64,000 nt of DNA from an uncultured Gammaproteobacteria bacterium (GTDB lineage: Bacteria; Patescibacteriota; Patescibacteriia; UBA9934; GWF2-40-263): positions 43,875 through 107,874 of the forward strand of contig CAZTTQ010000001.1 of the NCBI GenBank assembly GCA_964616135.1. The letters run 5' to 3'. The translations under genes were made by a program, and so were the position numbers. This document shows, piece after piece, positions 5,711-58,531 of the stretch; the first letter of the stretch is position 1; each line of letters starts with the position of its first letter. The notes beneath the pieces were generated by a model that was given only the letters and a program-made list of their open reading frames with translations, was not told the DNA's origin and did no database searches.

Positions 5711-5746
5711 GAAGAAAAATCCCCCGGCCACAGGCGTGGTCGGGGG
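5711..5746 (-). terminator. minus-strand terminator of lipoprotein paralog 1; a copy of the cassette hairpin (cccccggccacAGGCGtggtcggggg + T-rich)
   Basis: Same hairpin sequence as at 7406-7432 and 8918-8944; T/A tract gaagaaaaat adjacent. Confidence 0.6.
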
Positions 5747-5752
5747 AGAAGG

Positions 5753-7279
5753 TCAGAACGACAGGTCTTTGCCGGCGACGAGCGGGTCGCCGTTGACGCA
5801 GAAGCCCTGCGCCATGACGAGGTCCGTGTAGCAGAAGCGGAGAATCTCGACGCGGAGGACGTTGCCCGGAACGGCCCGGGTCGCGTCCATTGCGAAACGG
5901 AAGACCCGTTCGGTCCCGTTTGCAAGCGTCCCGCCGTTTCCCGCCATGTTGATGACTGAGACCGTGGGGGAGATCGCCGTCCGGGTGACATCCGCGAAGA
6001 GTGCGGCGTCCGGCAGGGCGGCGTCCGTGGTCCGAACCGCCTCCGTGCCGCCGTACCACCCGTCGTGGGTGAGGCGGTACCGTACGGAGGTGAGGAGGGC
6101 GTCGTGTCCGGCGGGTGCGGCGGGGTTCACTACGCGGAACGCCAGCGTGTTGGCGAACGACGGGGAGACGGTTCCCGCGGGGGAATCGTCCGTCCGCGCG
6201 GCTTGCGGCATCTGGGGGATCCGGATGAACGCGTAGTCGTGGTGGGACGCGTTCGTCGCGCCGTAGGCGATCTCCGGAACTTCTCCCGTATCGGCGTCCC
6301 GCAGGTCGATGGACCGGAGGGACGCGGCCAGGAGGAAGTTCGGCGCGCCGACGTTCGCGTTCGTCCAACAGAAGACGCCGAGTTCGCCGGATCCATGCAG
6401 GACGAACGGTTGGTCCGCGAACGAGAGGACGGTCCGTCCCTCTTCGGCCGCGGGACGCCGTCCGGATGCCTGTCCCGGAGGCGTGGTTGGCCCCGCGTAG
6501 GAAACGTAGCAGGCGCCGATACGGTCGCGCAGCAAGGAGGAAGACGCCTCCCAGACGTTGGTCCCGTCGAACGGGGCCACGTCCTGGACGACGTCGAGGT
6601 CGATCCTGGCCACGCGGACGTTCCGGTCTCCGGCACGGACGGAGAGGCGGAGGAACTGGAACAGGCCGCCCGGATACGACTGGGTGACCGTGTCCTCGTC
6701 CGGAGACGCGTCCCCGACCGCCACGATGCCGGGCGGCGGGTTTACCAACGGTTCGCATGAGCGGCCGTCCGCGGCGAGGGTTTCCCCCCGTTCGCAGCGC
6801 CGCTTGCACGTGGCGGTTGCCGTGTCGAACAGCCATCCCTCGTCACACGTGACGTCGTAGGCGCAGGATGCATGGCCGGTCTCCCGGTCCATGTTCGGCG
6901 AGAGGCCGTCCGGACACGTGATCGTGACGTCCGGGCACTCCTTTTCGGAGAACACCTCCGCGCCCGTGGAGAGACAGACGTAGAAGATCACTTCTTCCGG
7001 CGGCTGCGTCGTGGGGCACGCGCCCGCGCGCGGGCGGATGGAACCGTCGGCGCAGACGTAGACGCGCTTCTCGACGACCTTCGCAGGACCGCCGAACGGA
7101 TGGCAGGCGATCCCGCCGTCTTCCACCACCGCCCCTTCATCGGGGAGGCAGGGGACTGAGAAGCAGGCGCCGGAGGAGGTCGCGTACGACCCTTCCGGGC
7201 ACGAGGAGGAGACGGGGGCGTCTCCACAGGATGCCAGGGCCGATGCGGCCAGGGCGAAGTACATGAGGCGGGTGCGCAT
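5753..7279 (-). CDS. secreted cysteine-rich lipoprotein, paralog 1 of a tandem family (508 aa)
   Basis: The signal peptide ends in a lipobox (ALASC) and the N-terminal half is cysteine-rich. The C-terminal region aligns with paralog 2 (e.g. VRVDVTGFCYRD / LRVEILRFCYTD). The gene has an ATG start with GGAGGT. Confidence 0.75.
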   Translation of the reverse strand: MRTRLMYFALAASALASCGDAPVSSSCPEGSYATSSGACFSVPCLPDEGAVVEDGGIACHPFGGPAKVVEKRVYVCADGSIRPRAGACPTTQPPEEVIFYVCLSTGAEVFSEKECPDVTITCPDGLSPNMDRETGHASCAYDVTCDEGWLFDTATATCKRRCERGETLAADGRSCEPLVNPPPGIVAVGDASPDEDTVTQSYPGGLFQFLRLSVRAGDRNVRVARIDLDVVQDVAPFDGTNVWEASSSLLRDRIGACYVSYAGPTTPPGQASGRRPAAEEGRTVLSFADQPFVLHGSGELGVFCWTNANVGAPNFLLAASLRSIDLRDADTGEVPEIAYGATNASHHDYAFIRIPQMPQAARTDDSPAGTVSPSFANTLAFRVVNPAAPAGHDALLTSVRYRLTHDGWYGGTEAVRTTDAALPDAALFADVTRTAISPTVSVINMAGNGGTLANGTERVFRFAMDATRAVPGNVLRVEILRFCYTDLVMAQGFCVNGDPLVAGKDLSF

Positions 7280-7346
7280 GGCACCTCCGATATCCCCGGA
7301 ATGGGGACGGGTTTTGGCCCTTTCAAGGGGGCCTGGTTGGGAGAGA
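7280..7346 (-). promoter_or_regulatory. conserved structured 5' leader (copy 1): two hairpins GGCCC-CCUUGAAA-GGGCC and UCCCC-AUUCC-GGGGA before GGAGG
   Basis: ~65 nt of near-identical sequence also at 9860-9925 and 10383-10450, read on the minus strand. Confidence 0.5.
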
Positions 7347-7356
7347 GCAAGGACGA

Positions 7357-7385
7357 ATGATAGGTCTTTTTCAACCGTTTGTCAA
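7357..7385 (-). promoter_or_regulatory. sigma70-type promoter TTGACA-N17-TATCAT (minus strand) for paralog 1
   Basis: Exact consensus -35 and 17-nt spacer; part of repeated cassette. Confidence 0.6.
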
Positions 7386-7393
7386 TCGTCCAT

Positions 7394-7432
7394 GGAAAAG
7401 AAAATCCCCCGGCCACGGCGTGTGGTCGGGGG
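7394..7432 (-). terminator. terminator of paralog 2 (hairpin cccccggccac/gtggtcggggg + ATTTTCTTTTCC on minus strand); cassette copy A
   Basis: GC hairpin immediately followed by T-rich run downstream of stop at 7439. Confidence 0.6.
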
Positions 7433-7438
7433 AGAGCG

Positions 7439-8791
7439 TCAGAACGTCCACGTCTCGCCCGTGATGAGCACGGAGGAGTTGTCCAGGCAGGTTTCCACGT
7501 CCGCGAACGGATCGCGGTAGCAGAACCCGGTGACGTCGACGCGGACGGTGTCCGTGCCGGGCGCCCGCGCCTGCTCCGTGTCCATCTGGAACCGGAGCGT
7601 CAGCGGACGGGACGCCTGGATCGGGACCGCGTCGCGGGCCGTGTCCTGCATGAGGAACAGGAATTCCCCGTTGCTGGCGTTCGTCTGGATGTTGGTGAAC
7701 AACGAGCGCGACGGGTCGCGGATGTCGGTCACCCGTACGGTGGAAGGCGCGGTGTACCAGCCGTTGTCGATGATCGCAAACTGGACGGACCAGGTCTGCA
7801 GATCTCGACAGGACGCGTCGGCCACCACGTCGAACCGGAGGACTTCCCGGAGCGTGGTGGGCGTGGTGGGGTCCCAGTCCGTCTGCCCGACCTGGAGGAC
7901 GGGCGGCGGACAGGGGGGAAGCGGCGCGGCGCGGACCTGGTAGCTGAAATCGCTGTTCAGGTCCTCGAAGGTCACTTCGCTGCCGACGATGGGTTCGCCG
8001 GTTTCCGCGTCGACCAGGGTGACCAGGTCGAGCACGAGCGCCACGTGGTATGCGACCGGCGACGGCTTGAGGTCGCACTGGACGCTCACGTTGATGGACG
8101 TCCCCGAGCCGACGGCTTCGGGAAAGAACACCATCGCCTGCTCGGACAGGGGGACGTGGTCCAAGGACACTGGCCCCGCGACCTGCGCGGTGCTTGCATC
8201 CGTCAGCGTGCAGTCGCCGAGGTATTCGGCGACGTCCGCCTGGGTATGGAGCCACAGGGTCCGGTCGGGCACGACGCCGTCCTGCTCCACGCCGACGTAG
8301 GCGAGGAACCGGACGTCGCGCAACGTCACGGCGCGCGTCTCGTCCTGGATGATGAGCGGAAACAGGTCGGTGCGGGTTCCCACCGTCGTGTCGACGAGCC
8401 GCGGGACGCCGCCGTTCGGCGGGCGGACGGAGACGGTCCCCCGGACCTGCTGTCGGACACAGCCGTCGCCGGAGGCGTTCACCGTCTGGCCGGGCGGGCA
8501 CACCTTGAGGCAGGCCTTGGAGACCTCCTCGTACGCGTACCCGTCCGCGCAGGCCCGGGGACAGTCTTCCGGACGATCGACGTAGGTGTCGGTCGCCACG
8601 CACTTGTACTTGGTGACCGTCTCCTTTACGGTCACGGTTTCCTTGATGACGACCGGGGCGTCGACCGGGCACCGGGCCGGGTCGGTCACCCGCGTCTGCG
8701 CCGCGTCGCGGCAGACGTATTCCTGCGGCACGTCACCGCAGGCGGTGGCAAGGGAAAAGAGCAAGACGAACGGGACAGGGGGACGGAACAT
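7439..8791 (-). CDS. secreted cysteine-containing lipoprotein, paralog 2 (451 aa)
   Basis: Start taken at MFRPPVPFVLLFSLATAC (lipobox) with AAGGAG 6 nt upstream; C-terminal homology to paralog 1; longer track ORF to 8887 rejected. Confidence 0.7.
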   Translation of the reverse strand: MFRPPVPFVLLFSLATACGDVPQEYVCRDAAQTRVTDPARCPVDAPVVIKETVTVKETVTKYKCVATDTYVDRPEDCPRACADGYAYEEVSKACLKVCPPGQTVNASGDGCVRQQVRGTVSVRPPNGGVPRLVDTTVGTRTDLFPLIIQDETRAVTLRDVRFLAYVGVEQDGVVPDRTLWLHTQADVAEYLGDCTLTDASTAQVAGPVSLDHVPLSEQAMVFFPEAVGSGTSINVSVQCDLKPSPVAYHVALVLDLVTLVDAETGEPIVGSEVTFEDLNSDFSYQVRAAPLPPCPPPVLQVGQTDWDPTTPTTLREVLRFDVVADASCRDLQTWSVQFAIIDNGWYTAPSTVRVTDIRDPSRSLFTNIQTNASNGEFLFLMQDTARDAVPIQASRPLTLRFQMDTEQARAPGTDTVRVDVTGFCYRDPFADVETCLDNSSVLITGETWTF

Positions 8792-8868
8792 GGGTTTACT
8801 CCTTCGGTGGGGCGCGGCCTTCGCCATTACGATAACACGTCCGTTCATTTGTGATAGGGCGAGGAGTG

Positions 8869-8897
8869 ACGATAGGCGTTTTTCCAAGGTTTGTCAA
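8869..8897 (-). promoter_or_regulatory. sigma70-type promoter TTGACA-N17-TATCGT (minus strand) for paralog 2; cassette copy B
   Basis: Consensus -35, 17-nt spacer; ~85 nt cassette nearly identical to 7345-7440. Confidence 0.6.
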
Positions 8898-8905
8898 CCG
8901 TCCGT

Positions 8906-8944
8906 GGAAAAGAAAATCCCCCGGCCACAGTGTGTGGTCGGGGG
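8906..8944 (-). terminator. terminator of paralog 3 (cassette copy B hairpin + T-rich)
   Basis: cccccggccacagtgtgtggtcggggg hairpin followed on minus strand by attttcttttcc. Confidence 0.6.
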
Positions 8945-8959
8945 AGGTAGGGGGCGCGT

Positions 8960-9859
8960 TTATGGCGTGTCGCGGGGATCGGGCTCCGTCCCGCAGAGGA
9001 TGTACCGGTTGCCGGCCAGCACGTCGAACGCCGTTTCAGAGAGGATGATCCTCTTACCGGTGGTTAGCCCGTACGCTTCGGTCCGGGAGACCACGAGGCT
9101 CGTGGCCCAGCCGTTGAAGCCGTGGGCATTCCGGCAGACGTTCATGTCGCCGGAGAGGCCAGTGTTGAGCTGGCTCGTCCCTCCCTTTGGGACGAACATC
9201 CGGATGGGGATTTGCGCGTCCGCGTTCACCGCTCCGTCGGCGGAGGCGTGGTACGCCACGTTGCCTTCGTCGGTGTAGTACACGTGACTGGCCGTGATCC
9301 AGCTCGCCCAGTCGCCCTGGAGGCCGAGGCTGCCCAGGCCGAGCGCGACCTTGGTGACCACGAAGTCTTCTCCGACCGCGTGGAACACGAACCCGCTCGT
9401 CTCCGCCCAGCTACCATCGGTTGCCGGAGCGTATTCGACGCGCTCGGTGCCGGCGAGGGTCACGTACACGCGGCTGGTGGCCGCGATGCGGGAGAGCTCG
9501 TCGCCGCCGACCGCCGTGCAGGTGCCGTCCGACTGCAGGACGTTGCCGGCGGCGCAAGGGAACTTCCACGCCGGCGTGCACGACCCATCCTCGTGGAGAA
9601 GATCTTCGTCCCCGCAAGGGAACACCCAGGGTGTCTCGGGGTCGGCCGGCGGGACGCAGGTTCCGTCGGACGCCTCGAGCATGCCGCGGGCGCAGTGCTT
9701 CTCCCGGGCGACCAGGTCGTCCGGATCGGCGCAGACGCCGAGGGACGTGAGCACTTCGCCGGCCCTGCAGGGGAACTTCCACGCCGCGGTGTCGCCGCAG
9801 GCGGAGAGGGTCGCCGCAAGCAGGATTGCCGCGGCGTAGAACGACGTGTGGATGCGCAA
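8960..9859 (-). CDS. secreted lipoprotein, paralog 3 (299 aa) with three internal W-[KV]-F-P-C...G.C repeats
   Basis: The signal peptide ends in the lipobox LSAC. The apparent start codon is TTG, directly after the conserved leader with GGAGGCGCG. Three ~35-aa repeats (WKFPCRAGEVL, WVFPCGDEDLL, WKFPCAAGNVL) are visible. Confidence 0.7.
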   Translation of the reverse strand: MRIHTSFYAAAILLAATLSACGDTAAWKFPCRAGEVLTSLGVCADPDDLVAREKHCARGMLEASDGTCVPPADPETPWVFPCGDEDLLHEDGSCTPAWKFPCAAGNVLQSDGTCTAVGGDELSRIAATSRVYVTLAGTERVEYAPATDGSWAETSGFVFHAVGEDFVVTKVALGLGSLGLQGDWASWITASHVYYTDEGNVAYHASADGAVNADAQIPIRMFVPKGGTSQLNTGLSGDMNVCRNAHGFNGWATSLVVSRTEAYGLTTGKRIILSETAFDVLAGNRYILCGTEPDPRDTP

Positions 9860-9925
9860 CGCGCCTCCGATGTCCCCGGGATGGGGACGGTTTTGGCCCT
9901 TTCAATGGGGCCGAGTTGCGAGAGA
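9860..9925 (-). promoter_or_regulatory. conserved structured 5' leader (copy 3)
   Basis: GGCCCCAUUGAAAGGGCC and GUCCCCAUCCCGGGGAC hairpins then GGAGG; near-identical to copies at 7280 and 10383. Confidence 0.5.
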
Positions 9926-9973
9926 GCTGGAGCTGGTCAAGGCTCGCGAGGGATTCGTGAGCTTTGTGCAGCG

Positions 9974-10004
9974 CCCGACGCGGAGAGAGTCTCTCGCGTC
10001 GGGG
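9974..10004. other. strong near-perfect palindrome (cccgacgcggagaga g tctctcgcgtcgggg) between paralogs 4 and 3, no T-tract
   Basis: ~15-bp stem read directly; may be a processing/stability element or partial terminator; no clear promoter for paralog 3 downstream of it. Confidence 0.4.
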
Positions 10005-10016
10005 AAAGAGAATGGG

Positions 10017-10382
10017 TCACTTCGGAGGGATGACACCTTGGATGTCGTAGTCCATTATGGCGTCGCACTGCAGCTGGTCCTGCATATTGTGACCGCAGAA
10101 GTCGGCGGATGGGTCGTGGGTGACCACGATCGGTGCAATAGGTACGGGGTCTATGTGGAAGAAGAAGATCGGCGGATCCATCTCCTGAGCCATCTTGATT
10201 ACCGGCCCGGGCGGGCAGGAGCGGGGGTCGTTCGCCTCGGTGTCGTCGGCACAGACGTACACCTTTTCCGTCTGGACCACGACCTTCTCAGTCGTGACAG
10301 TGACGATCTCCGACTCGCAGGCCGCGATCAGGTTCGCCAGGGCCAGGATGGCCGCGGCGCAGAACGTGGTGTAAGCGCGCAA
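10017..10382 (-). CDS. small secreted lipoprotein, paralog 4 (121 aa)
   Basis: Signal peptide + lipobox (IAAC); TTG start after conserved leader GGAGGCGCT; Cys-containing. Confidence 0.65.
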   Translation of the reverse strand: MRAYTTFCAAAILALANLIAACESEIVTVTTEKVVVQTEKVYVCADDTEANDPRSCPPGPVIKMAQEMDPPIFFFHIDPVPIAPIVVTHDPSADFCGHNMQDQLQCDAIMDYDIQGVIPPK

Positions 10383-10450
10383 AGCGCCTCCGATGTCCCC
10401 GGGATGGGGACGGTTTTGGCCCTTTCAAGGGGGCCTGGTTGGGAACGTGC
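10383..10450 (-). promoter_or_regulatory. conserved structured 5' leader (copy 4)
   Basis: Same two-hairpin sequence as copies 1 and 3. Confidence 0.5.
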
Positions 10451-10542
10451 TCTTTTGGGCGAGAAGCCCGTACTTAGTGACGTTTCCTAGGCAGAAACAC
10501 TCAATAAATACGGGCCTTCCTCCCTGATCAATTCGAGGGAAA

Positions 10543-10571
10543 ACTATAGCACTTTTTGGCCCGTTTGTCAA
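10543..10571 (-). promoter_or_regulatory. sigma70-type promoter TTGACA-N17-TATAGT (minus strand) heading the lipoprotein array
   Basis: Consensus -35/-10 with 17-nt spacer; flanking sequence ccgtttgtcaatcgt matches the cassette. Confidence 0.55.
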
Positions 10572-10586
10572 TCGTGCCAGGGCAAC

Positions 10587-10619
10587 GAAAAACCCACCCG
10601 TGGAATGGGTGGGTTTTTA
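10587..10619. terminator. bidirectional terminator (aaaaa cccaccc gtggaat gggtggg ttttt)
   Basis: Perfect 7-bp GC stem flanked by A5 and T5; downstream of peroxiredoxin stop. Confidence 0.7.
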
Positions 10620-14366: not shown

Positions 14367-14927
14367 ATGGACCTGCTTGCCGTCGCCCCCACCGTCGCCT
14401 GGGGCGCGTTCATCGCCTACGTTCTCGACTTGGTGACCAAGAGGCCGGACCGCGAGTGGGAGACGTTCGCCCGCTACGCCCCGGTTCGGTGGTTCGTTTC
14501 ACCGGAAGGCCGCCAGATCGGCTGGTGGGCCGGAGCGTTCCTGCTCCTGTGCGCCGTCGCGAGCGCCTGGCAGCGGCCGGTCGAAGCCCTGATCGGCTTC
14601 GTCCTGTACGCCGTGACCTTCGGCCAGACCCGCTGGCCGTGGCGCAAGAAGCAGGCGGACGACCCGCTCGGGCGCTCCGCCTTCACCCTGGGCCTGCGCG
14701 TCGCCGCCGACACGTTCGAGACCCTCGAGCGCCGTCTCGGCAACCGCGCCAAGACCGCGAACGTCACCGGCATACGCTTCCAGTCCGGCATCCTCACGGT
14801 CTACGTGCGGGAAGCCGACCCGGTGCTCGAGTCCTTCGTCAAGGACTACGTCCGCGATCGGCGGCCCGACCTGCCGACCTACGTGGTCGAGGACCGCCCG
14901 CCGGATCCCGACCCGAACGTCATGTAA
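14367..14927 (+). CDS. hypothetical membrane protein
   Basis: High GC3, TM segments, SD AAAGGAG; overlapping minus ORF 14499..15323 looks antisense. Confidence 0.55.
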   Translation: MDLLAVAPTVAWGAFIAYVLDLVTKRPDREWETFARYAPVRWFVSPEGRQIGWWAGAFLLLCAVASAWQRPVEALIGFVLYAVTFGQTRWPWRKKQADDPLGRSAFTLGLRVAADTFETLERRLGNRAKTANVTGIRFQSGILTVYVREADPVLESFVKDYVRDRRPDLPTYVVEDRPPDPDPNVM

Positions 14928-17051: not shown

Positions 17052-17054
17052 ACT

Positions 17055-17127
17055 CGTCATTGCGAGCCGAAGGCGAAGCAATCCTCTCAGAAAAGATTGC
17101 TTCGTCACTCCGTTCCTCGCAATGACG
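17055..17127. other. nested inverted repeats (12-bp outer cgtcattgcgag/ctcgcaatgacg; 9-bp inner gaagcaatc/gattgcttc) in metG-cvpA gap
   Basis: Perfect IRs read directly; ends 8 nt before cvpA ATG; no T-tract. Confidence 0.4.
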
Positions 17128-17134
17128 GACACAT

Positions 17135-17629
17135 ATGCCCTGGATCGACATTGGTCTGCTCGTACTCATCGTCGGGTTCACCCTTGTCGGTTTTTGGTTG
17201 GGGTTCGTCCAGATGATGGGGAACCTACTGGGCACGTTCCTGGGCATCACGGTCGCGGGGCGCCTGGTGGATCCGGTCATGACGTGGATGCACAGCGACA
17301 GCGGGTGGACGCGCGTCATTGTCTTCATCGTCGCGTACTCCATCGTCTCGCGTGTCTTCGACGTCGTCTTCTGGTTCGTCCGCAAGACGTTCGGCGTGAT
17401 TTCCTGGCTGCCGCTCGCGGGTTTGGCGAACCGCATGGTCGGCGCGGTGCTCGGTTTGGCCGAAGGGATCATTGCCATCGGCGCGGCACTGTTCGTCGCG
17501 TCCGCGTTCGTCCCCGAACCCACGTTGCAGGCCTGGCTCGCGACGTCGTCCGTCGCCTGGGCGCTCCTGGCCATCATGCAGCTCTTCAAATTCCTTCTTC
17601 CCGAGGCCATCCGCCTTCTGAACCGGTAA
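17135..17629 (+). CDS. cvpA: CvpA family membrane protein (colicin V production protein-like)
   Basis: 164-aa 4-TM protein with CvpA-like organisation. Confidence 0.65.
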   Translation: MPWIDIGLLVLIVGFTLVGFWLGFVQMMGNLLGTFLGITVAGRLVDPVMTWMHSDSGWTRVIVFIVAYSIVSRVFDVVFWFVRKTFGVISWLPLAGLANRMVGAVLGLAEGIIAIGAALFVASAFVPEPTLQAWLATSSVAWALLAIMQLFKFLLPEAIRLLNR

Positions 17630-17631
17630 GT

Positions 17632-18471
17632 ATGTTGATTGATACTCATTGCCATGTCAGTTTTGAAGCGTACAAGGACGACGCAGAAGAAGTCGTGAAG
17701 CGCGCGCTTGCCGCCGGCGTGCAGATGGTCACGATTGGCACGCGCATCGAGACTTCCGTTGCCGCGGTGAAGTTTGCCGAGGCACATGAAGGCGTGTGGG
17801 CGACGATCGGCCTCCATCCGGGCCACGTGCACGCGCAGGAGTATGTGGATAAAAACGAAGTGCCCGCGGACCAAGTCGGCGCCGGGCACGCGGCGGAAGT
17901 GTTTGATGCGGAAGCGTATCGGAAACTGCTTGCGCATCCGAAAGTCGTCGCGATCGGCGAATGCGGGTTGGATTACTATCACGCGCCAAAAGACGCGGCG
18001 GACGACGCGTGGAAAACGGAGCAGCAGGCGGTCTGTCGCGCGCAACTCAAGCTCGCTTCTGAAGCGGGGAAGCCGGTGGTGATCCATTGCAGGGACGCGC
18101 ACCAGGACCAGGCGCGGCTCATCCGTGACGAAATCGCCGCGGGAGGCCTCGCCCGCCGCGGAGTGATCCATTGCTTCACCGGCACGGCCGAAGAAGCGGC
18201 GATGTATCGCGAACTGGGATTCATGGTCGCGTTCGGCGGCATTATCACGTTCGGCAAGAGCGTGGCGGACGCGGCCGCGCAGGTTCCGCTCGACCAAATC
18301 GTGCTGGAAACCGACGCGCCGTACCTTGCTCCCGCGCCGTACCGCGGCAAACGCAACGAACCGGCCTACGTCACGGAGGTCGCGCGCAAACTCGCCACGC
18401 TCAAAGGCACGACGGTGGAAGAAATTTCCCGCGTGACGACGGAGAACGCGAAACGGCTGTTCCAGATATAA
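17632..18471 (+). CDS. tatD: TatD family metal-dependent hydrolase/DNase
   Basis: MLIDTHCHV N-terminus, GECGLDY, HCRDA motifs. Confidence 0.85.
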   Translation: MLIDTHCHVSFEAYKDDAEEVVKRALAAGVQMVTIGTRIETSVAAVKFAEAHEGVWATIGLHPGHVHAQEYVDKNEVPADQVGAGHAAEVFDAEAYRKLLAHPKVVAIGECGLDYYHAPKDAADDAWKTEQQAVCRAQLKLASEAGKPVVIHCRDAHQDQARLIRDEIAAGGLARRGVIHCFTGTAEEAAMYRELGFMVAFGGIITFGKSVADAAAQVPLDQIVLETDAPYLAPAPYRGKRNEPAYVTEVARKLATLKGTTVEEISRVTTENAKRLFQI

Positions 18472-18517
18472 AAAATCACCGCCCCGTCCGGAGTACCGGA
18501 GGGGCGGTTTCGCGTTT
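18472..18517. terminator. bidirectional terminator, member of repeated family (ccgcccc gtccggagtaccggag gggcgg + TTTCGCGTTT)
   Basis: Near-identical (~40 nt) to element at 19142-19187. Confidence 0.65.
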
Positions 18518-19059
18518 CAGTACTGGGCGCGGAAGCGCTCCAGCAGCCAGCCGGGACGCGTCGCGAAGCCGAAGACGTCGCAGAGGGCGTTCGGCAGCTT
18601 GTGCCGGTCCTGGTAGCCGTCCTTCACGCCGTAGAGGAGCGGCGCCTCGAGCCGGCCGGCGAGCAGGGCCGCGCACGTGTGGTTGTGCAGCGGTGGCGCG
18701 CGGAAGAAGTAGTGGAGGAGGGCCTCCGCTTCCACCTTCGGCAGGTGCAGGACGTCCGTCCGCTTCTTCTCCTGGGAGACGAGCGTCGTGTCCGCGCGGA
18801 GGAGGGCGTCGTTGTCGTGCGTCTCGCGCTCGACGTCGCGGACCGGCAGGTCGAAGCGGTCCGTGATCACGGGCAGCTGGCCCTTGGCGAGCAGCTCTCG
18901 CGTGTCTGGTAGCAGGTCGTCCGGTTCCGGCACGGCGAAGCGGATGAACCAGCAGCCGATGCCGGGAATACTCGTGTTCATCGTGACCGTGCAGTCCGCG
19001 ATGTCCACGATGATGGTGTTGCCTTCGCACGCGAAGATCCTTGTCGTATAGTCCGACAT
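18517..19059 (-). CDS. hypothetical protein (180 aa)
   Basis: High GC3; own promoter and SD GGAGGAAATAG; flanked both sides by copies of the same terminator element. Confidence 0.55.
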   Translation of the reverse strand: MSDYTTRIFACEGNTIIVDIADCTVTMNTSIPGIGCWFIRFAVPEPDDLLPDTRELLAKGQLPVITDRFDLPVRDVERETHDNDALLRADTTLVSQEKKRTDVLHLPKVEAEALLHYFFRAPPLHNHTCAALLAGRLEAPLLYGVKDGYQDRHKLPNALCDVFGFATRPGWLLERFRAQY

Positions 19060-19101
19060 CCTATTTCCTCCGTCCCGGTTGACTGTTAGGCGGGACGAAG
19101 C

Positions 19102-19130
19102 ACCCTAGCTGAACGGCTGGCCATTGTCAA
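19102..19130 (-). promoter_or_regulatory. sigma70-type promoter TTGACA-N17-TAGGGT (minus strand)
   Basis: Consensus -35 with 17-nt spacer directly downstream (minus sense) of terminator repeat. Confidence 0.55.
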
Positions 19131-19141
19131 TGTATACCGGT

Positions 19142-19187
19142 AAAAAAACGCCGCCCTTCCGGAGTACTGGAGGGGCGGTTTGCGTTT
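19142..19187. terminator. terminator repeat copy 2 (A7 gccgccc ttccggagtactggag gggcgg TTTGCGTTTG)
   Basis: Immediately after NUDIX stop (19192) on minus strand; A-tract/T-tract flanks. Confidence 0.65.
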
Positions 19188-19191
19188 GCGG

Positions 19192-19719
19192 CTACCAGCG
19201 AGGCTTGCCGCTGGCGCGGTCGCGCCGCTCGCGGAAGTAACGGTCCAGGACCGCCTGGTGGGTGGAGAAGACGAGCGTGTCTCCTTCGCGCAGGATGACC
19301 CGTTCCCGGACCTCGGCGTTCGGGACGAACGGGGGCAGGTCGCCGTTCAGGGCGGGAGTGATACCGAACAGCAGGATGATGTTCGATTCCGTCGCATCCC
19401 CCGCGTCGTACTGGAGGATCGAGTGCGGGGGCACGTGGATGCCCAGCTCCTCGTGCAGCTCCCGGGCGCCCGCGGCGCGCCACGGTTCGCGCCGGTTGAC
19501 GTACCCGCCGGGGAAGGCGAGGCCTCCCTTGCCGGGGTCGATATTCCGCCGCACGCCGAGCAGGCCGTCCCCGTAGGGAACCAGCAGAGCGGCGGCCGGC
19601 AGGGGGTTGCCGTATTCGACGTGCCCGCAGCCGGGACAGGTGAGAGGCCAGGCCTCTTGCTCGGGTAGGAGGTGCGTGCAGCGCGTGCAATGAAGGGCTT
19701 CGGGGATCGCGTCGGACAT
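19192..19719 (-). CDS. NUDIX hydrolase with N-terminal zinc ribbon (NudC-like architecture)
   Basis: NUDIX box (GGYVNRREPWRAAGARELHEELGI) plus CxxC...CxxC N-terminus; start at MSDAIPEAL (M57 of track ORF). Confidence 0.8.
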   Translation of the reverse strand: MSDAIPEALHCTRCTHLLPEQEAWPLTCPGCGHVEYGNPLPAAALLVPYGDGLLGVRRNIDPGKGGLAFPGGYVNRREPWRAAGARELHEELGIHVPPHSILQYDAGDATESNIILLFGITPALNGDLPPFVPNAEVRERVILREGDTLVFSTHQAVLDRYFRERRDRASGKPRW

Positions 19720-19759
19720 CCGTCTCCTCAAGTCCCGCCGGGAACGTGGCGGGAGAGGA

Positions 19760-19788
19760 ACGATAGGCGAAATAGGGCCCCTTGTCAA
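19760..19788 (-). promoter_or_regulatory. sigma70-type promoter TTGACA-N17-TATCGT (minus strand) for NUDIX gene
   Basis: Consensus -35, 17-nt spacer; sequence cgataggcg...ttgtcaa resembles the lipoprotein cassette promoter. Confidence 0.55.
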
Positions 19789-47357: not shown

Positions 47358-47636
47358 GTGAAGCGTGACTTGTACTGGCTGTTTGATCAGGCGTTGCAGA
47401 TCCTGGATCCGGCGAAGGCGTTCGACCTCACATTCAACACGTCCGGATTCGGTCCGGACTACGCCGTGTACTTCCCTGACGACGAAGGGGCTGTGCGCTA
47501 CTCGAGCGAGTCGCCGCACCGCCTGAGGGTCGCCATCATCGAAGGCGCCCGCACGGGCCTGACCTGGGCCGGCACGCGACAACCCCCGCCGCTCCGATCT
47601 GGAGCCGGCGGGGATTTTTTATCGCTGAACGATTGA
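47358..47636 (+). CDS. hypothetical small protein (C-terminus overlaps terminator hairpin)
   Basis: GTG with GAGGTAGG SD; protein-like N-terminal 75 aa. Confidence 0.35.
   Translation: MKRDLYWLFDQALQILDPAKAFDLTFNTSGFGPDYAVYFPDDEGAVRYSSESPHRLRVAIIEGARTGLTWAGTRQPPPLRSGAGGDFLSLND
47583..47622 (+). terminator. terminator, member of repeated pair (cccccgccgctccgatctggagccggcgggg + ATTTTTTAT)
   Basis: Near-identical 40-nt copy at 48431-48468. Confidence 0.65.
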
Positions 47637-47661
47637 CAAACCCCCCGTTTTGCTGTATAAG
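47633..47661 (+). promoter_or_regulatory. sigma70-type promoter TTGACA-N17-TATAAG
   Basis: Consensus -35/-10; ~70-nt structured leader to ATG 47736. Confidence 0.6.
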
Positions 47662-47735
47662 AAAAATGTCGGATACCTCCGACGACCCGCGGCCGGTTTT
47701 GGTCGTTTCGTAGGACGAAAGGATGTGAAGGCACG

Positions 47736-48422
47736 ATGGGACTGACCCTGCTCTGGGTACTGAACTTTGCCATCTCGTGGTTCAACGCGTGGGCCTGCGG
47801 CCAGGCGTGGAACGAAAGCAAGAAGCAGGGCGGCTTCCCGCATCTGACCAACTGGGCGGGTGCGATCATGTCCGCCAGCGGCTTCAGCTGGTGCTACATG
47901 GTGGTTCTCGCCTGGTTCGGCGCCACGGTGCCGTTCACGGACAAGAAGACCCACGTGGTGTCCACCCTGCTCAGCCAGGCGGACCTGCAGGCCTTCTGCG
48001 ACCTCGGCTACGCCGTGATCGTGATCCCGATCATCGGGTCGGGCCTGATCATCATGCTCGACACGTGGGCGCACTTCTACCGGAAGCGCACCATCGGGAA
48101 CGCCCTGCTCTCCGGGTACAACACCTTCGCCCAGCTGCACAACATGTACAGCGCGGCGCAGCACCTGCCCGGCGTCTTCACGCGGCTCGGAGACTTCTTC
48201 TTCGCCAAGGGCAGCAAGGACGGAAAGGGCAAGCTCATCATCGCCCTCGTCGTCCTCTCCGTGGCGGGCGGCATCCTGACGGCCCGCGCCATCCTGCTCG
48301 CGTCCGCCGGCAGCCGCGCCCGCCGCACCTCCGACGACCTTCACGACGCGGAACGTGAGTTCAAGCGCCGCGAACGCGAACGTGGGCACGCCGCCGGCAG
48401 CGGAGCCGCTTCCGCCGCCTGA
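47736..48422 (+). CDS. hypothetical polytopic membrane protein
   Basis: Hydrophobic, SD AAGGATG; flanked by two copies of the same terminator. Confidence 0.55.
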   Translation: MGLTLLWVLNFAISWFNAWACGQAWNESKKQGGFPHLTNWAGAIMSASGFSWCYMVVLAWFGATVPFTDKKTHVVSTLLSQADLQAFCDLGYAVIVIPIIGSGLIIMLDTWAHFYRKRTIGNALLSGYNTFAQLHNMYSAAQHLPGVFTRLGDFFFAKGSKDGKGKLIIALVVLSVAGGILTARAILLASAGSRARRTSDDLHDAEREFKRRERERGHAAGSGAASAA

Positions 48423-48430
48423 AACGCAAT

Positions 48431-48468
48431 CCCCGCCACTCCGATCTGGAGCCGGCGGGGATTTTTTA
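48431..48468. terminator. bidirectional terminator repeat copy 2
   Basis: ccccgccactccgatctggagccggcgggg + ATTTTTTATT; also directly follows ATPase stop on minus strand with TTGCGTTT tail. Confidence 0.65.
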
Positions 48469-50325
48469 TTCCGCAGAAGCGACGCGCAGCGCGTTCAAGA
48501 TGACGACGACGTCCACCGCCTCCTGCAGGATGGCGCCGTAGAGCGGCGGGAGATATCCGGCCGCGGCGACGCCCATGAGGAGAAACGACAGCGCCATGCC
48601 GAGTTGGATACCGCCGACGGCGACGCTCACCGTGCGTTTGGCGATGGCGCGGACTTCCGCGACCTTGTGTACGTCGTCCAAGGTGATGACGATGTCCGCC
48701 GTTTCCGCGGAGGCGGCGGATCCGTTCGCCCCCATCGCGATACCGACGTCGGCGGCAGCCAGCGCGGGCGCGTCGTTCACGCCGTCGCCGACCATGGCTA
48801 CCGCGCCGCGGGTTTGGAGCTGGGCGATCCGCTTCACCTTGTCGCCCGGCAGGCATTCGGCAAACACGCGGCTGACGCCCGCTTCTTTTGCCAGGGCCTT
48901 TGCGACGGTCTCTTTGTCGCCGGTGAGCAATTCCACGTCCTTTACGCCCGCGCGGCGCAGTTCCGCGACGAACGCGGCCAGTCCGGGACGGGCCTTGTCC
49001 GAAAACGAGATGGATCCGCGGAGCCGGTTCCCTTCTGCCAAATATACGGTGCGGATGCCGCGGGACTTTTTCTTTTCCGCGTCCTTTGCCAACGCCCCCG
49101 GGATGGCGACGCCTAATCCCTTGAGGAAGCTGAGGCGGCCGAACGCGTACGTCTTTCCGCCCAGGCGGCCGGTGACGCCGCGGCCCACGTCTTCCTTAAA
49201 GCGTTCCGGGAACGGCAGAGCGAGTCCGCGCTCTTCTGCCTGAGCCGTCAGGGTGCGGGCCAATACGTGGGACGATCCCTGGTCCAAGGACGCGGCGAGG
49301 CGCAGTACGTCTTCTTCCGAGCCGTATTCGGCGGCAATCCCGCGTACGACCGGCGTGCCGAACGTGAGCGTGCCGGTCTTGTCGAAGACGAACGCGCGGG
49401 CGCGGGCCAATACCTCCAAGGCCCCTCCGTGCTTCACGATGATACCCCGGCCCGCCGCCCGGCTGATGCCGGAAATCATGGCGATCGGCGTGGCCAGGAT
49501 AAGCGGGCACGGCGTGGCCACCACTAGCACGGCCAGCACGCGCGTCGGATCGCCGGAAACCATCCACGCCCCCGCGGCCACCAAGAACGTGACGAGGGTG
49601 AAGAATCCGCTATACCGGTCCGCCAGGCGCACGAGCGGCGCTTTTTTGCTTTCCGCCTCCTGCACGAGCGTCACGATGCGTCCGTATTGGCTTTCCGCCG
49701 CGTTGGAGAGCGCGCGGACGGTCAGAAGCGATCCGCCGTTGACGGCGCCGCCGGGAATGCGGCTGTGCGGCGCCACGTCCATGGGCAGTGATTCGCCCGT
49801 CAGGCGCGATGCGTCCATTTGTCCCGTCCCTGCGATGACCACCGCGTCCACCGGCACCACGTCACCCGGTTTAACGGCCAAGCGGTCGCCCGCCTTTACC
49901 TGTTCTACCGGCACGTTTTTCACTTTGCCGCGCACGTACAGGTGCGCCACGGTCGGCGCGGCGGACAACAGCGCCCGGAGCGATCGGCGCGCACGGACGA
50001 GCGCATACGCTTCCAGCGCTTCGCCGCCAGAAAGCATGAGCAAGATGACGCAGCCGGCCACCCACTGGCCGAAGAAGGCCGCCGCGCCCATGGCCGCGAC
50101 CGCGATCACGTCCACGCCGAACCGGCCCTTTGTGAGCTGGCGCAACAGACCGGCTGCCGCGGGGATCCCGCCCGCCGCCAGGAGCAGGACGAACGCCGGC
50201 AGCGCCGCTTCCGCTCCTGATCGGGACTGCCAAGCCAGCGCCGCTCCAAACCACAACGCGAACACGACCGGTTGCACCAAGGCGTGCGCGGCGCGGGAAC
50301 GCTCCTCCTGAGCCTGCTGTTTCAT
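48466..50325 (-). CDS. P1B-type heavy-metal-translocating P-type ATPase (no N-terminal HMA domain)
   Basis: CPx (ATPCPLILATP), DKTGTLT, GDGVNDAPAL; start MKQQAQEE with TATACT box 7 nt upstream (possibly leaderless). Confidence 0.85.
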   Translation of the reverse strand: MKQQAQEERSRAAHALVQPVVFALWFGAALAWQSRSGAEAALPAFVLLLAAGGIPAAAGLLRQLTKGRFGVDVIAVAAMGAAAFFGQWVAGCVILLMLSGGEALEAYALVRARRSLRALLSAAPTVAHLYVRGKVKNVPVEQVKAGDRLAVKPGDVVPVDAVVIAGTGQMDASRLTGESLPMDVAPHSRIPGGAVNGGSLLTVRALSNAAESQYGRIVTLVQEAESKKAPLVRLADRYSGFFTLVTFLVAAGAWMVSGDPTRVLAVLVVATPCPLILATPIAMISGISRAAGRGIIVKHGGALEVLARARAFVFDKTGTLTFGTPVVRGIAAEYGSEEDVLRLAASLDQGSSHVLARTLTAQAEERGLALPFPERFKEDVGRGVTGRLGGKTYAFGRLSFLKGLGVAIPGALAKDAEKKKSRGIRTVYLAEGNRLRGSISFSDKARPGLAAFVAELRRAGVKDVELLTGDKETVAKALAKEAGVSRVFAECLPGDKVKRIAQLQTRGAVAMVGDGVNDAPALAAADVGIAMGANGSAASAETADIVITLDDVHKVAEVRAIAKRTVSVAVGGIQLGMALSFLLMGVAAAGYLPPLYGAILQEAVDVVVILNALRVASAE

Positions 50326-56441: not shown

Positions 56442-58238
56442 CTATAGGTTTGTATCTATCCAATCAAAGATCTGGTTGAATCGAGTAATTGTGTCGATAT
56501 GAATTTTTTTCTTAGTAATTGATCCATCCGACACTTTCTCAAAAAAAGATTTAGCAAATACAATCTTCCGTTTTTCACCGATGGACTCAGCTGGATCTGT
56601 TTTTTGAACAATTTTATCGTCAATTAACTTTAAGTCATCCAAATGAAGTAGGTTTTCTACGGATGAAATTCCAATAGTGATATACATCTTGGAGGCAGCA
56701 GCTCCCTCGTCTTTTTCGAAGAGATGTTCTTTGATTTCTTCGTAAGTTTTTTGAGAATCTTTTCCTCGCGAAGAATCGTCATCGAAAATTGCGACCCAAG
56801 AAATACCGTAACCAATACAAAATGAAACTAGAGTGTATTGTTTTCTGACACCTATTCCCGGTATGAAGGCGTAGTCTGCAATATCACGTTTGAGGAGGGT
56901 TCTCATTGCACTGTAGTAATAAAAATCTGAAACTCCTTCCAGAATCACACTCTTTTTATTTGTCAGCCCAAAATCGCTTACCGAGAAGCCAATAGCATTT
57001 GCCACTGGCTGGAGTGCATCTTGTTTATTCTGAGAATCAATTTTGGAGGAAGTGATATTCTCTATCAATGTTCCTTTGGTTTTATCATTTACGATGAGGT
57101 GTATTCTTTCAAGATGATCTGTCCTGATCAAATTTGGCGAATGAGTTGAGTAGAGAAATTGATGCCCCGTTTTTGTTAGAGATTCAAATACATTGAGGAT
57201 GTCGGTCTGAGCTTTTATATGAAGATAGAGTCCGGGTTCATCCGCTAAAACAATCAATTCTCTCTCATGACCACTCGCCTGTAATTCCATCCAAAAAGAA
57301 AGAAACCATACCAATCCCTTACTCCGCATTCGGGGACGAATTTTTTGTTTATCCTTTGTCTCAATATAAAAACTTACAAAAGTGTCATCTTCGGAAGATC
57401 GTTTTTCGAATTTATAGGCAATTTTTACTCTATTATCACCGTGAATTTGTTGCTTCCATGCTTTTGTAAAATCAATCGATATAGCTTCATTATGTTTTTC
57501 CTCAATAGAGTCTCTCTTCAAGTCATCTAGACTGTACAGAGTTTTAAAATCTGCACCTGATATTTTTTCAAAGTTTTTTACGGCCTTATACCCTTTTGAA
57601 TCTTTTTTGTCGCTTTTTAGATCCTTAAGCGAGAAGGTGTCTGGCAATAGATCGCAGAAATCATTAAACAAGATGATTTTAGGAGTATGGTTCCAGAATA
57701 ACTCAGCGACTTCTGAATTCTGATCGTCAGTAAGTTCAATAATCTTTTTCCTCTCCTTCTTTACTGGAGCAACTTCTGCCTCCACATTAACGTCTTCTTC
57801 AAGAATAGAGCTACGAAAGATCTGAAAAACTGCTTCAGGGATAGATGTCTGCACCTTTTTAGAGGGATTTAGCGTTCGAGTAATTTTAAAATCTTTTACC
57901 GTGCGTTTCAGTTTTGGGATGTCAATTAATGATCCGACTTTAGCTCGCTCAATCTCATTCTGTTCACCAAATGTTTTTTCAATTTCATCCCAAAAATCAG
58001 AATCCGATTCTTCAATTTCGTATGTGCATGACACCTCTTGAATTGGTGACTCAAAATCAAATGGTATGGAATCTGATTCAAATTCTGCGTTTTCAAAAGC
58101 AGCCAGACCCTCTAAAATAGAGCTTTTACCAGACTCATTTTGACCAGCGAAAATTGCAATTCTCCCATTACCTAAAGAAATCTCTCCAGTATCCTGAATG
58201 GACTTATAATTCTTAATTCGGAATGATTTCAATTTCAT
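56442..58238 (-). CDS. OLD-family ATP-dependent endonuclease (ABC-type ATPase + C-terminal Toprim), standalone
   Basis: The ATPase half has Walker A GQNESGKSS, Walker B LIVLADEPGLYLH and H-loop STHSP. The Toprim half has Glu (VILEGVSD) and DxD (IFDDDS). Gene GC is ~35% against a ~65% background. Confidence 0.75.
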   Translation of the reverse strand: MKLKSFRIKNYKSIQDTGEISLGNGRIAIFAGQNESGKSSILEGLAAFENAEFESDSIPFDFESPIQEVSCTYEIEESDSDFWDEIEKTFGEQNEIERAKVGSLIDIPKLKRTVKDFKITRTLNPSKKVQTSIPEAVFQIFRSSILEEDVNVEAEVAPVKKERKKIIELTDDQNSEVAELFWNHTPKIILFNDFCDLLPDTFSLKDLKSDKKDSKGYKAVKNFEKISGADFKTLYSLDDLKRDSIEEKHNEAISIDFTKAWKQQIHGDNRVKIAYKFEKRSSEDDTFVSFYIETKDKQKIRPRMRSKGLVWFLSFWMELQASGHERELIVLADEPGLYLHIKAQTDILNVFESLTKTGHQFLYSTHSPNLIRTDHLERIHLIVNDKTKGTLIENITSSKIDSQNKQDALQPVANAIGFSVSDFGLTNKKSVILEGVSDFYYYSAMRTLLKRDIADYAFIPGIGVRKQYTLVSFCIGYGISWVAIFDDDSSRGKDSQKTYEEIKEHLFEKDEGAAASKMYITIGISSVENLLHLDDLKLIDDKIVQKTDPAESIGEKRKIVFAKSFFEKVSDGSITKKKIHIDTITRFNQIFDWIDTNL

Positions 58239-58438
58239 AGGGTATGTCAGAAACTGGTTCAGAGTTATCTATTAAACTTATCGACTTTGGGTAGGAGCTC
58301 GCTCGCAAGAATATTGATCAACACATCGCGACACACCCCAATCGCTGCGCTGCCCAGCTTCCCAAAATTATTCTTTTGAATCTTCGTAGTTTGCATCATA
58401 AACGAAAGGATGATCGTCAACGGAGTCAGAAACATTAA

Positions 58439-58475
58439 TACTCCCGTCGGATTTGAACCGACCAGGCCACAAGCA
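58439..58475 (-). tRNA. tRNA 3'-half-like fragment (T-arm GTCGG-TTCAAAT-CCGAC + acceptor 3' strand GGGAGTA); no complementary 5' half found
   Basis: Canonical T-stem-loop read on minus strand; cannot complete a cloverleaf, so probably an att-site remnant/pseudo-tRNA. Confidence 0.35.
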
Positions 58476-58531
58476 AGCCCCTGCCAGAATCGACAATGTT
58501 GTAAAGGTTCTCTTCTTCTAACGTATCACCC

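Follow-up and report, generated by a model that had tools for sequence, protein, structure and literature searches.

Duplicated terminator-like hairpins around an orphan gene in the variable TatD–UvrD gap of an uncultured Patescibacteria genome

Two near-identical G+C-rich hairpins, el1 and el2, lie 670 bp apart and in the same orientation on contig CAZTTQ010000001.1 of an uncultured bacterium (NCBI GenBank assembly GCA_964616135.1, positions 43,875 to 107,874; this stretch of 64,000 nucleotides is referred to as the window), where they bracket a single orphan open reading frame (ORF) of 180 amino acids (aa), ORF180. Together with a gene for a NUDIX hydrolase, they occupy the gap between the genes for a TatD-family hydrolase and a UvrD/AddB-type helicase. 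The best protein matches of the source organism are found in Patescibacteria, close to Candidatus Uhrbacteria. Why should one gene be framed by two copies of the same hairpin? A preliminary description of this DNA had likened the arrangement to a cassette or to a family of repetitive extragenic palindromes (REP) doubling as terminators. It is likely, with a probability of about 0.68, that el1 and el2 are paralogous copies of one intrinsic (Rho-independent) terminator module, copied locally while self-contained units were stacked in the gap.

Both elements were found where they had been reported (18472-18517 and 19142-19187), as near-identical hairpins with the anatomy of terminators; the boundaries adopted here, giving ~48 nt each, are listed in Table 1. 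Alignment of el1 with el2 showed 43 identical columns out of 49 and two one-base indels, the differences being indels as well as substitutions. The consensus proposed earlier was broadly right, except that el1 starts with ACCGCCCC and not with GCCGCCC, and that el2 has a 5' arm one base shorter (CCCT-TCCGG) and is without the C of TTT(C)GCGTTT. The hairpin, designated family 1, follows the pattern CCGCCCYG?TCCGGAGTNNNGGA.GGGGCGG. In each copy, a G+C-rich stem of 12-13 bp closed by a 4-nt loop is preceded by an A-run and followed by a T-rich run; the loop AGTA and the flanks TAAAAAA and GCGTTT are common to the two. The folding energies on the plus strand were -26.5 kcal/mol (z -4.1) for el1 and -30.8 kcal/mol (z -3.7) for el2, and those on the minus strand were -27.5 and -22.0 kcal/mol, respectively. 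The minus strand has a T6/T7 run at the hairpins, which are followed there by GATTTTTT (el1) and CGTTTTTTT (el2). On the plus strand, the hairpins are followed by TTTCGCGTTT and TTTGCGTTT, respectively, the common form being TTT(C)GCGTTT; the U-tracts of this strand are interrupted and therefore weaker. A terminator scan identified el2 as the strongest site within its 20-kb region. Two G.U pairs of el2 on the plus strand correspond to C.A mismatches on the minus strand, and its C-to-T changes weaken the minus-strand fold to -22 to -24 kcal/mol. Rfam contained no family for el1, and a sub-threshold ctRNA match over it (21 bits vs a gathering score of 45) was dismissed.

The positions of the elements point to the ends of genes. 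The TAA of TatD (18469-18471) abuts el1, which lies between it and the stop codon of ORF180 (18517-19), and el2 is located 5 nt from the NUDIX stop codon (19192-94), just upstream of the ORF180 promoter. Hence, both copies show the sequence features of intrinsic terminators, i.e., a stable G+C stem-loop and a U-rich tract just 3' of stop codons, with the pairing maintained. In its G+C stem-loop with an A-tract and a T-tract at convergent stop codons, el1 is comparable to bidirectional intrinsic terminators; unlike these, it has a second copy 670 bp away in the same orientation, with a gene enclosed between the two, and its activity is predicted. The better conserved copy is el1, in which pairing is purely Watson-Crick, whereas el2, situated between co-oriented genes, carries the G.U/C.A changes. 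In Bacillus cereus, terminators shared by convergent genes are more constrained, and G.U pairs are the usual intermediates (PMC5381666); the better preservation of el1 matches this pattern. The strand asymmetry of el2, in which the 3-4 stem changes all keep G.U on the plus strand, was considered as a sign of plus-strand function and set aside, as the events were too few (p about 0.06-0.12).

The hairpin is a local feature. Searching the window for its 20-nt core CCGGAGTACYGGAGGGGCGG with up to 3 mismatches gave el1 and el2 and nothing else, against a chance expectation of 0.03 matches; none of 100 shuffles contained two. A census of the window revealed ~20 stable hairpins with a U-tract, the sequences of which are all different except for three local families: el1/el2, a 95% identical pair at 47580/48427 and a triplet at 5712/7398/8910. 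With two copies in 64 kb that are unlike the other terminators, the hairpin is therefore not a ubiquitous terminator consensus, a possibility that the preliminary description had left standing, and the REP-like spread that it had suggested was not seen. Among relatives, of which ~190 kb of sequence was fetched, family 1 was present only at the orthologous spot. No true match was detected in 185,579 representative genomes (GTDB; the collection does not include the source genome); the sole hit, L002, lies within the coding sequence of an unrelated Firmicute, forms no hairpin and was judged a chance match. Viral contigs yielded no match to this hairpin or to that of the 47580/48427 pair (family 2), and a literature search on terminator duplication or REP elements in Patescibacteria retrieved nothing relevant. 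The triplet belongs to a tandem array of paralogous genes at 5712-10600, which have the terminator hairpin, the promoter (TTGACAAAC...TATCAT/TATCGT) and a 5' UTR block (7310, 9889, 10412) in common; this is a whole-unit tandem duplication in the source genome.

Comparison with relatives linked the number of hairpins to the number of units in the gap. The flanking runs MetRS-CvpA-TatD and UvrD-DciA-MreB are syntenic in all of them. TatD has 279-aa orthologues at 89% identity. The sister species (L003, L004 and L013; UvrD 97% identical at the aa level) has the same order as the window, with TatD facing el1, ORF180 (82% aa identity) on the minus strand with its promoter next to el2, and then NUDIX with its promoter next to UvrD. 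In L006 (UvrD 96%), TatD is followed by DCD, and one hairpin separates these from NUDIX. L011 (UvrD 93%) contains a GIY-YIG element and one hairpin, followed on the minus strand by NUDIX and then by a different hairpin, an unrelated 290-aa gene and a 160-aa gene. L012 (TatD 80%) has one hairpin between TatD and a 179-aa homologue of ORF180 (ORF179), then UvrD, and is without NUDIX. In L009 (UvrD 77%), TatD is followed by a mere remnant of the hairpin, its left half (AAAAACACCGCCCGTCCGGAG), which no longer folds, and then by the UvrD promoter. TatD and UvrD are 2 bp apart in L014 (TatD 70%), and L015 (TatD 67%) carries other cargo with other hairpins. Relatives with one unit, either NUDIX or the ORF180 homologue, thus possess one family-1 hairpin and those with both units two, and positional orthologues of el2 adjoin NUDIX in the sister species, L006 and L011. 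As to whether homologues of the gene lie between the same repeats, the close homologue of the sister species does, but the distant one in L012 (35% aa identity) has a single hairpin, on its TatD side.

As its content differs among relatives, the gap is a variable insertion spot, probably in an old and once single TatD-UvrD operon, and it is filled with a stack of minus-strand units, each having its own promoter and hairpin terminator. The earlier impression of a cassette gains some backing from this, since the gene behaves, together with its promoter and terminator, as a self-contained unit. The stems of positional orthologues differ in sequence with pairing kept (TCCGG/CCGGA vs TCTCC/GGAGA; CCGCCCC/GGGGCGG vs CCCCGCC/GGCGGGG), and those of L011 and L012 fold at -25 to -28 and -19 to -23 kcal/mol, respectively, which argues for selection on structure. 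Pairing was judged from individual folds, as automatic alignment and RNAalifold of the seven hairpins misaligned the diverged stems and gave no formal covariation counts.

The duplication is old. Between the window and L003, orthologous copies are identical at 46/50 (el1) and 42/50 (el2) positions, and the paralogous copies at 43/49 positions in the window and 43/51 in L003. These values place the duplication at least as early as the split of the two species, and they show no sign of concerted evolution or of homogenization of el1 and el2 within either genome. On the favored reading, the hairpin pair would have arisen locally, in or before the common ancestor of the source organism and its sister species, as two autonomous, moron-like units (promoter, 5' leader hairpin, ORF and terminator) came to be stacked in a hypervariable gap that interrupts the ancestral TatD-UvrD operon. 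As a predicted bidirectional terminator, el1 would stop both convergent genes, TatD and ORF180. The NUDIX transcript would be stopped by el2 before the ORF180 promoter, which would thereby be shielded, and on the other strand el2 would back up el1 against read-through from the TatD operon. We infer that the hairpin was copied at the time of unit addition. Candidate routes are, in order of preference, Campbell-type or homology-facilitated integration through short terminator homology, local duplication with later replacement of the gene, and an unrecognized site-specific system.

The genes and signals of the locus are compiled in Table 1. ORF180, which had been described as a hypothetical gene with a TTGACA-N17-TAGGGT promoter of its own, proved to be real, as a Shine-Dalgarno sequence (SD), the promoter and a coding-type G+C distribution were all found. 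Its G+C content at the three codon positions is 0.67/0.42/0.93, typical of a coding frame; the third-position value (GC3), at 0.93-0.96, is atypical vs 0.75-0.88. The C-terminal domain (about aa 104-180) is conserved. No match was found in Pfam, PHROG, PADLOC, NCBIfam or PDB sequences, and among 5.8 billion clusters ORF180 retrieved only itself. An exhaustive search of 1.84 billion representatives returned three matches, one of which, P0123, a 1105-aa protein of perfect tandem repeats, was judged to be an artefact. The L012 homologue (P0124) is similar over its full length. Scanning of metagenomes with a profile of the family added one contig only, again from the sister species, and no relatives were present among viral contigs. 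An AlphaFold2 model of the single sequence was unusable (pLDDT 34).

Table 1. Coordinates of the hairpin elements, genes and expression signals of the TatD-UvrD gap in the window.
Feature	Position	Strand	Description
el1 terminator module	18469..18517; stem-loop 18479-18507		A-run, hairpin and TTTCGCGTTT; all pairs Watson-Crick
el2 terminator module	19141..19187; stem-loop 19150-19179		T7 on minus strand
ORF180	18517..19059	-	Orphan 180-aa gene, rare family, known only at this chromosomal spot
ORF180 signals	19060..19130	-	-35 TTGACA 19125-19130; -10 TAGGGT 19102-19107
ORF180 leader	19072-19096 (hairpin); 19067-19071 (SD)	-	Hairpin GTCCCG..CGGGAC; SD GGAGG; layout kept in L003
NUDIX hydrolase	19192..19719	-	PF00293, E 5e-8; N-terminal zinc-ribbon-like CxxC..CxxC
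NUDIX promoter	19760..19788	-	TTGACA-N17-TATCGT, then leader hairpin TCCCGCC..GGCGGGA (about 19730-19755)
UvrD/AddB-type helicase	ATG at 19834	+	Back-to-back with NUDIX promoter
TatD-family hydrolase	17632..18471	+	Pfam PF01026, E 3e-78; last gene of MetRS-CvpA-TatD run
CvpA	17135-17629	+	Downstream of MetRS, upstream of TatD

The NUDIX protein is hypervariable, with 49-67% aa identity where UvrD reaches 93-97% in the same genome comparisons, and with nonsynonymous (dN) and synonymous (dS) divergence from the sister species of 0.39 and 0.93. The promoters and leaders of ORF180 and NUDIX share their design only (TTGACA-N17-TA..., a (G)TCCCGCC...CGGGAC hairpin, SD and ATG-TCN-GAC). This leader, consisting of a -10 box, a (G)TYCCNGYC ... 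GRCGGGA(C) hairpin and SD, is common to the minus-strand gap genes (ORF180, NUDIX, the L011 290-aa gene and ORF179 of L012), occurs likewise in L003 and L006, and is absent from the other promoters found in the window. Rather than a trace of duplication, it may be a shared regulatory or stabilizing element, such as a 5' stem-loop or an operator. Next to the flanking genes, a 78-bp palindrome is present between MetRS and CvpA (17053-17130), with the arms CGTCATTGCGAG...GAAGCAATC / GATTGCTTC...CTCGCAATGACG. Arms of this kind also border a GIY-YIG gene of 95 aa that is inserted after TatD in L011 (1860-2265), so the window palindrome looks like an empty derivative resembling a miniature inverted-repeat transposable element (MITE). 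L011 also carries, directly upstream of TatD where the window has CvpA, a gene for a bAvd/23S_rRNA_IVP-type four-helix bundle (574-921). Elsewhere in the window, positions 56500-58500 form a low-G+C island (0.36-0.41 vs 0.62 for the window) with AT-rich internal repeats, which is probably foreign DNA.

The same architecture was observed at a second locus. Here the hairpins, at 47580-47622 and 48427-48469, surround a promoter and the gene of a 228-aa membrane protein (47736-48422). For comparison, window positions 47358-48469 were set against L016 7320-9000. L016 and L017 (ATPase 90% identical at the aa level) have one hairpin, with the same 30-nt left flank as copy 2 of the window, and an intact gene for an M17 aminopeptidase; only the first 74 codons of the latter are left in the window (47358-47579). 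Copy 1 is joined, within the left arm of the hairpin, to a stretch identical to the internal M17 sequence GCGACAACCCCCGCC; the joint lies at a microhomology, and host DNA was lost there. The hairpin-promoter-gene-hairpin architecture has therefore arisen at least twice, with the pre-insertion state preserved in one case. The 228-aa protein belongs to no Pfam or NCBIfam family and has relatives of 37-45% identity on four IMG/VR viral contigs (L019-L022; 52-158 kb), which suggests that the cargo may be phage-derived. A looser relative of this hairpin was noticed at L016 10768-10799.

Several observations weigh against local copying followed by vertical descent. Of 11 genes compared with the sister species, ORF180 had the lowest dS (0.13) and the highest dN/dS (0.79); a GC3-matched control gene (14367-14927) had a dS of 0.29, and the other nine genes ranged from 0.38 to 0.93 in dS and from 0.03 to 0.42 in dN/dS. 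Identity to the sister species rises to 95-98% exactly at el1 and stays at this level over the C-terminal domain of ORF180 (window 18479-18755), compared with only about 80% in the final 70 nt of TatD. Together, these hint that the unit was later exchanged laterally, an event not foreseen under purely vertical descent; the cause may be recent exchange of this kind or an extra constraint at the nucleotide level. Moreover, no clean empty site for ORF180 was found, as DCD (L006) and the GIY-YIG element (L011) occupy the TatD side, so that either ORF180 or NUDIX may have been the later arrival, or relatives may have lost ORF180 by deletion between the repeats. At L011 2918-2945, a hairpin identical at 27/28 positions to the family of the second locus (window 47584-47611) terminates the unrelated 290-aa gene, which indicates that terminator sequences travel between non-homologous loci. 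Finally, termination of transcription at el1 and el2 is itself a prediction. NUDIX shows the reverse pattern: its protein is 54% identical to that of the sister species and 67% to that of L006. Two one-base deletions are common to el2 and the L006 hairpin, yet over its whole length el2 is hardly closer to L006 (42/49) than to L003 (42/50). Judging from these comparisons, each gap gene, and to some extent its terminator, has its own history, which would fit an individual exchange or replacement of units.

An alternative is that the hairpins are recombination (att-like) sites, with promoter-gene-hairpin units acting as cassettes that enter and leave at the terminator hairpin, either by a dedicated enzyme or by Campbell-type/homology-facilitated integration of taken-up DNA through the 30-45 bp of terminator sequence; either route would leave a hairpin at both ends of the insert. 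Two independent loci of this architecture in one window agree with such a role, as do the single-hairpin state of the second locus in a close relative and the chimeric copy 1 joined inside the left arm. The hairpins also change company, family 1 adjoining TatD, DCD, ORF180 and NUDIX in different genomes and family 2 the 228-aa gene, M17 and the L011 290-aa gene, and a hairpin tends to track its gene (el1-ORF180 links to L003, the NUDIX/el2 deletions to L006). The start of the high-identity tract at el1 and the half hairpin of L009, as if broken at the loop, can be read likewise. This explanation nevertheless appears unlikely: no recombinase was identified in the window, which was partly screened for one; the layout was already in place before the species split and has stayed the same since; the repeats, now 84-88% identical, have drifted apart and give no evidence of recent activity; and two loci are too few, since homologous recombination or deletion at any short repeat leaves similar footprints. 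Integron cassettes with attC sites are similar in having a single ORF and an imperfect palindrome, with the palindrome on both sides and a variable array. The core sites R''/R' of attC, RYYYAAC ... GTTRRRY, lie at the palindrome ends and are lacking here; by inspection, the flanks TAAAAAA(T/A)C and GGTTT(C)GCGTTT fit the core consensus on neither strand. Further departures from integrons are that ORF180 and NUDIX each have their own promoter, that the palindrome is a short A/T-flanked terminator, that there are two units only, and that the neighbors are TatD and the UvrD-like helicase with no integrase seen there. IS200/IS605-type elements, in which tnpA/tnpB lie between subterminal hairpins, and their non-autonomous derivatives (PATE), in which the hairpins may enclose nothing, differ as well, since the orphan cargo matches no transposase family and the hairpins have the A/T tracts of terminators and are stably syntenic in the sister species.

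Dispersal of a REP-like palindrome family, for instance one mobilized in a RAYT/IS200-like manner, with two members landing in neighboring intergenic regions, is very unlikely. Members of REP families are scattered in many copies, frequently as inverted pairs. Similar to REPs and bacterial interspersed mosaic elements (BIME), el1 and el2 are extragenic palindromes 3' of genes that can affect transcript 3' ends; related designs (CCCCGCC..GGCGGGG outer stems, CTCC/GGAG inner stems) recur in the lineage, and one family-2 copy stands at a non-homologous locus in L011. However, the two copies are adjacent and point the same way, whereas REP families typically form inverted pairs (REPINs), and no others were detected in the window, in the ~190 kb from relatives, where the orthologous spot alone has them, or in the representative genomes and viral contigs. 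A tandem duplication of the whole NUDIX unit (terminator, gene and promoter), with one gene then diverging or being overwritten to give ORF180, is highly improbable. The units are of similar length (about 670 and about 650 bp) and share the TTGACA-N17 promoter, the leader hairpin and the ATG-TCN-GAC (MSD) start, and the family-3 paralogues at 5.7-10.6 kb, with common promoter and terminator, show that whole units are duplicated in tandem in this genome. Yet blastn, tblastx and blastp found no similarity between the ORF180 and NUDIX units beyond the hairpin, and profile-profile comparison of ORF180 with NUDIX families gave a probability of 0.1%, so that ORF180 was rejected as a diverged NUDIX paralogue. 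ORF180 has neither a Nudix box nor a zinc ribbon, its distant homologue in L012 exists without NUDIX, and the same leader motif precedes the unrelated L011 290-aa gene and so may be a general regulatory motif. Chance resemblance or convergence of two independent G+C-rich terminators deserves almost no weight: a high-G+C genome favors stems of C-runs and G-runs and terminator design is constrained, but the 43/49 common columns include the loop and both flanks, the ~20 other terminators of the window show no such similarity, and the core count effectively refutes it.

Local copying of a terminator during unit stacking, the preferred reading, has partial parallels among known systems. Morons are defined as having their own promoter and terminator, being obvious additions and having an atypical composition (PMC3594210). 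ORF180 is comparable in its predicted sigma-70-type promoter and hairpin terminator, in being an addition relative to genomes with adjacent TatD and UvrD, and in its atypical GC3 of 0.93, and the cargo of the second locus has relatives on viral contigs. It is unlike morons in that the unit lies in a bacterial chromosome, inside a housekeeping operon and not in a prophage, and has no viral relatives. To our knowledge, morons have not been described as flanked by duplicated terminators. Islets acquired by Campbell-type or homology-facilitated illegitimate recombination during natural transformation offer the likeness of an insert bounded by ~45 bp of duplicated host sequence, and the junction of the second locus, with microhomology and loss of host DNA, is similar to these direct-repeat-flanked islets; the difference is that the mechanism here is deduced, with no donor identified.

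Taken alone, el1 and el2 are an ordinary terminator pair and a mildly interesting evolutionary footprint. The pair looks like the trace of a self-contained unit added to the gap rather than a genome-wide repeat family or a recognizable mobile element; from its sequence, it can be regarded as a real, non-random and locally duplicated putative terminator, tied to gene gain and apparently conserved for its terminator role. Its value lies in providing a dated footprint of gene gain in an uncultured bacterium with a reduced genome, in which the TatD-UvrD housekeeping operon was split open and is now host to fast-evolving orphan genes that are predicted to be individually transcribed. Each new unit appears to come with, or to acquire, a copy of the resident terminator. 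A broader proposal, that terminator hairpins serve in this Patescibacteria lineage as joints at which promoter-gene-terminator units are inserted, swapped and deleted, is speculative and rather improbable. If true, a terminator-anchored cassette exchange that proceeds without an element-encoded recombinase or with an unrecognized one would have left its scars in the hairpin pairs at 18.5/19.1 kb and 47.6/48.4 kb. Should the pattern recur genome-wide, newly acquired genes in Patescibacteria metagenome bins could be found by a simple sequence signature, and short stretches of terminator homology would be indicated as a substrate for the integration of taken-up DNA.

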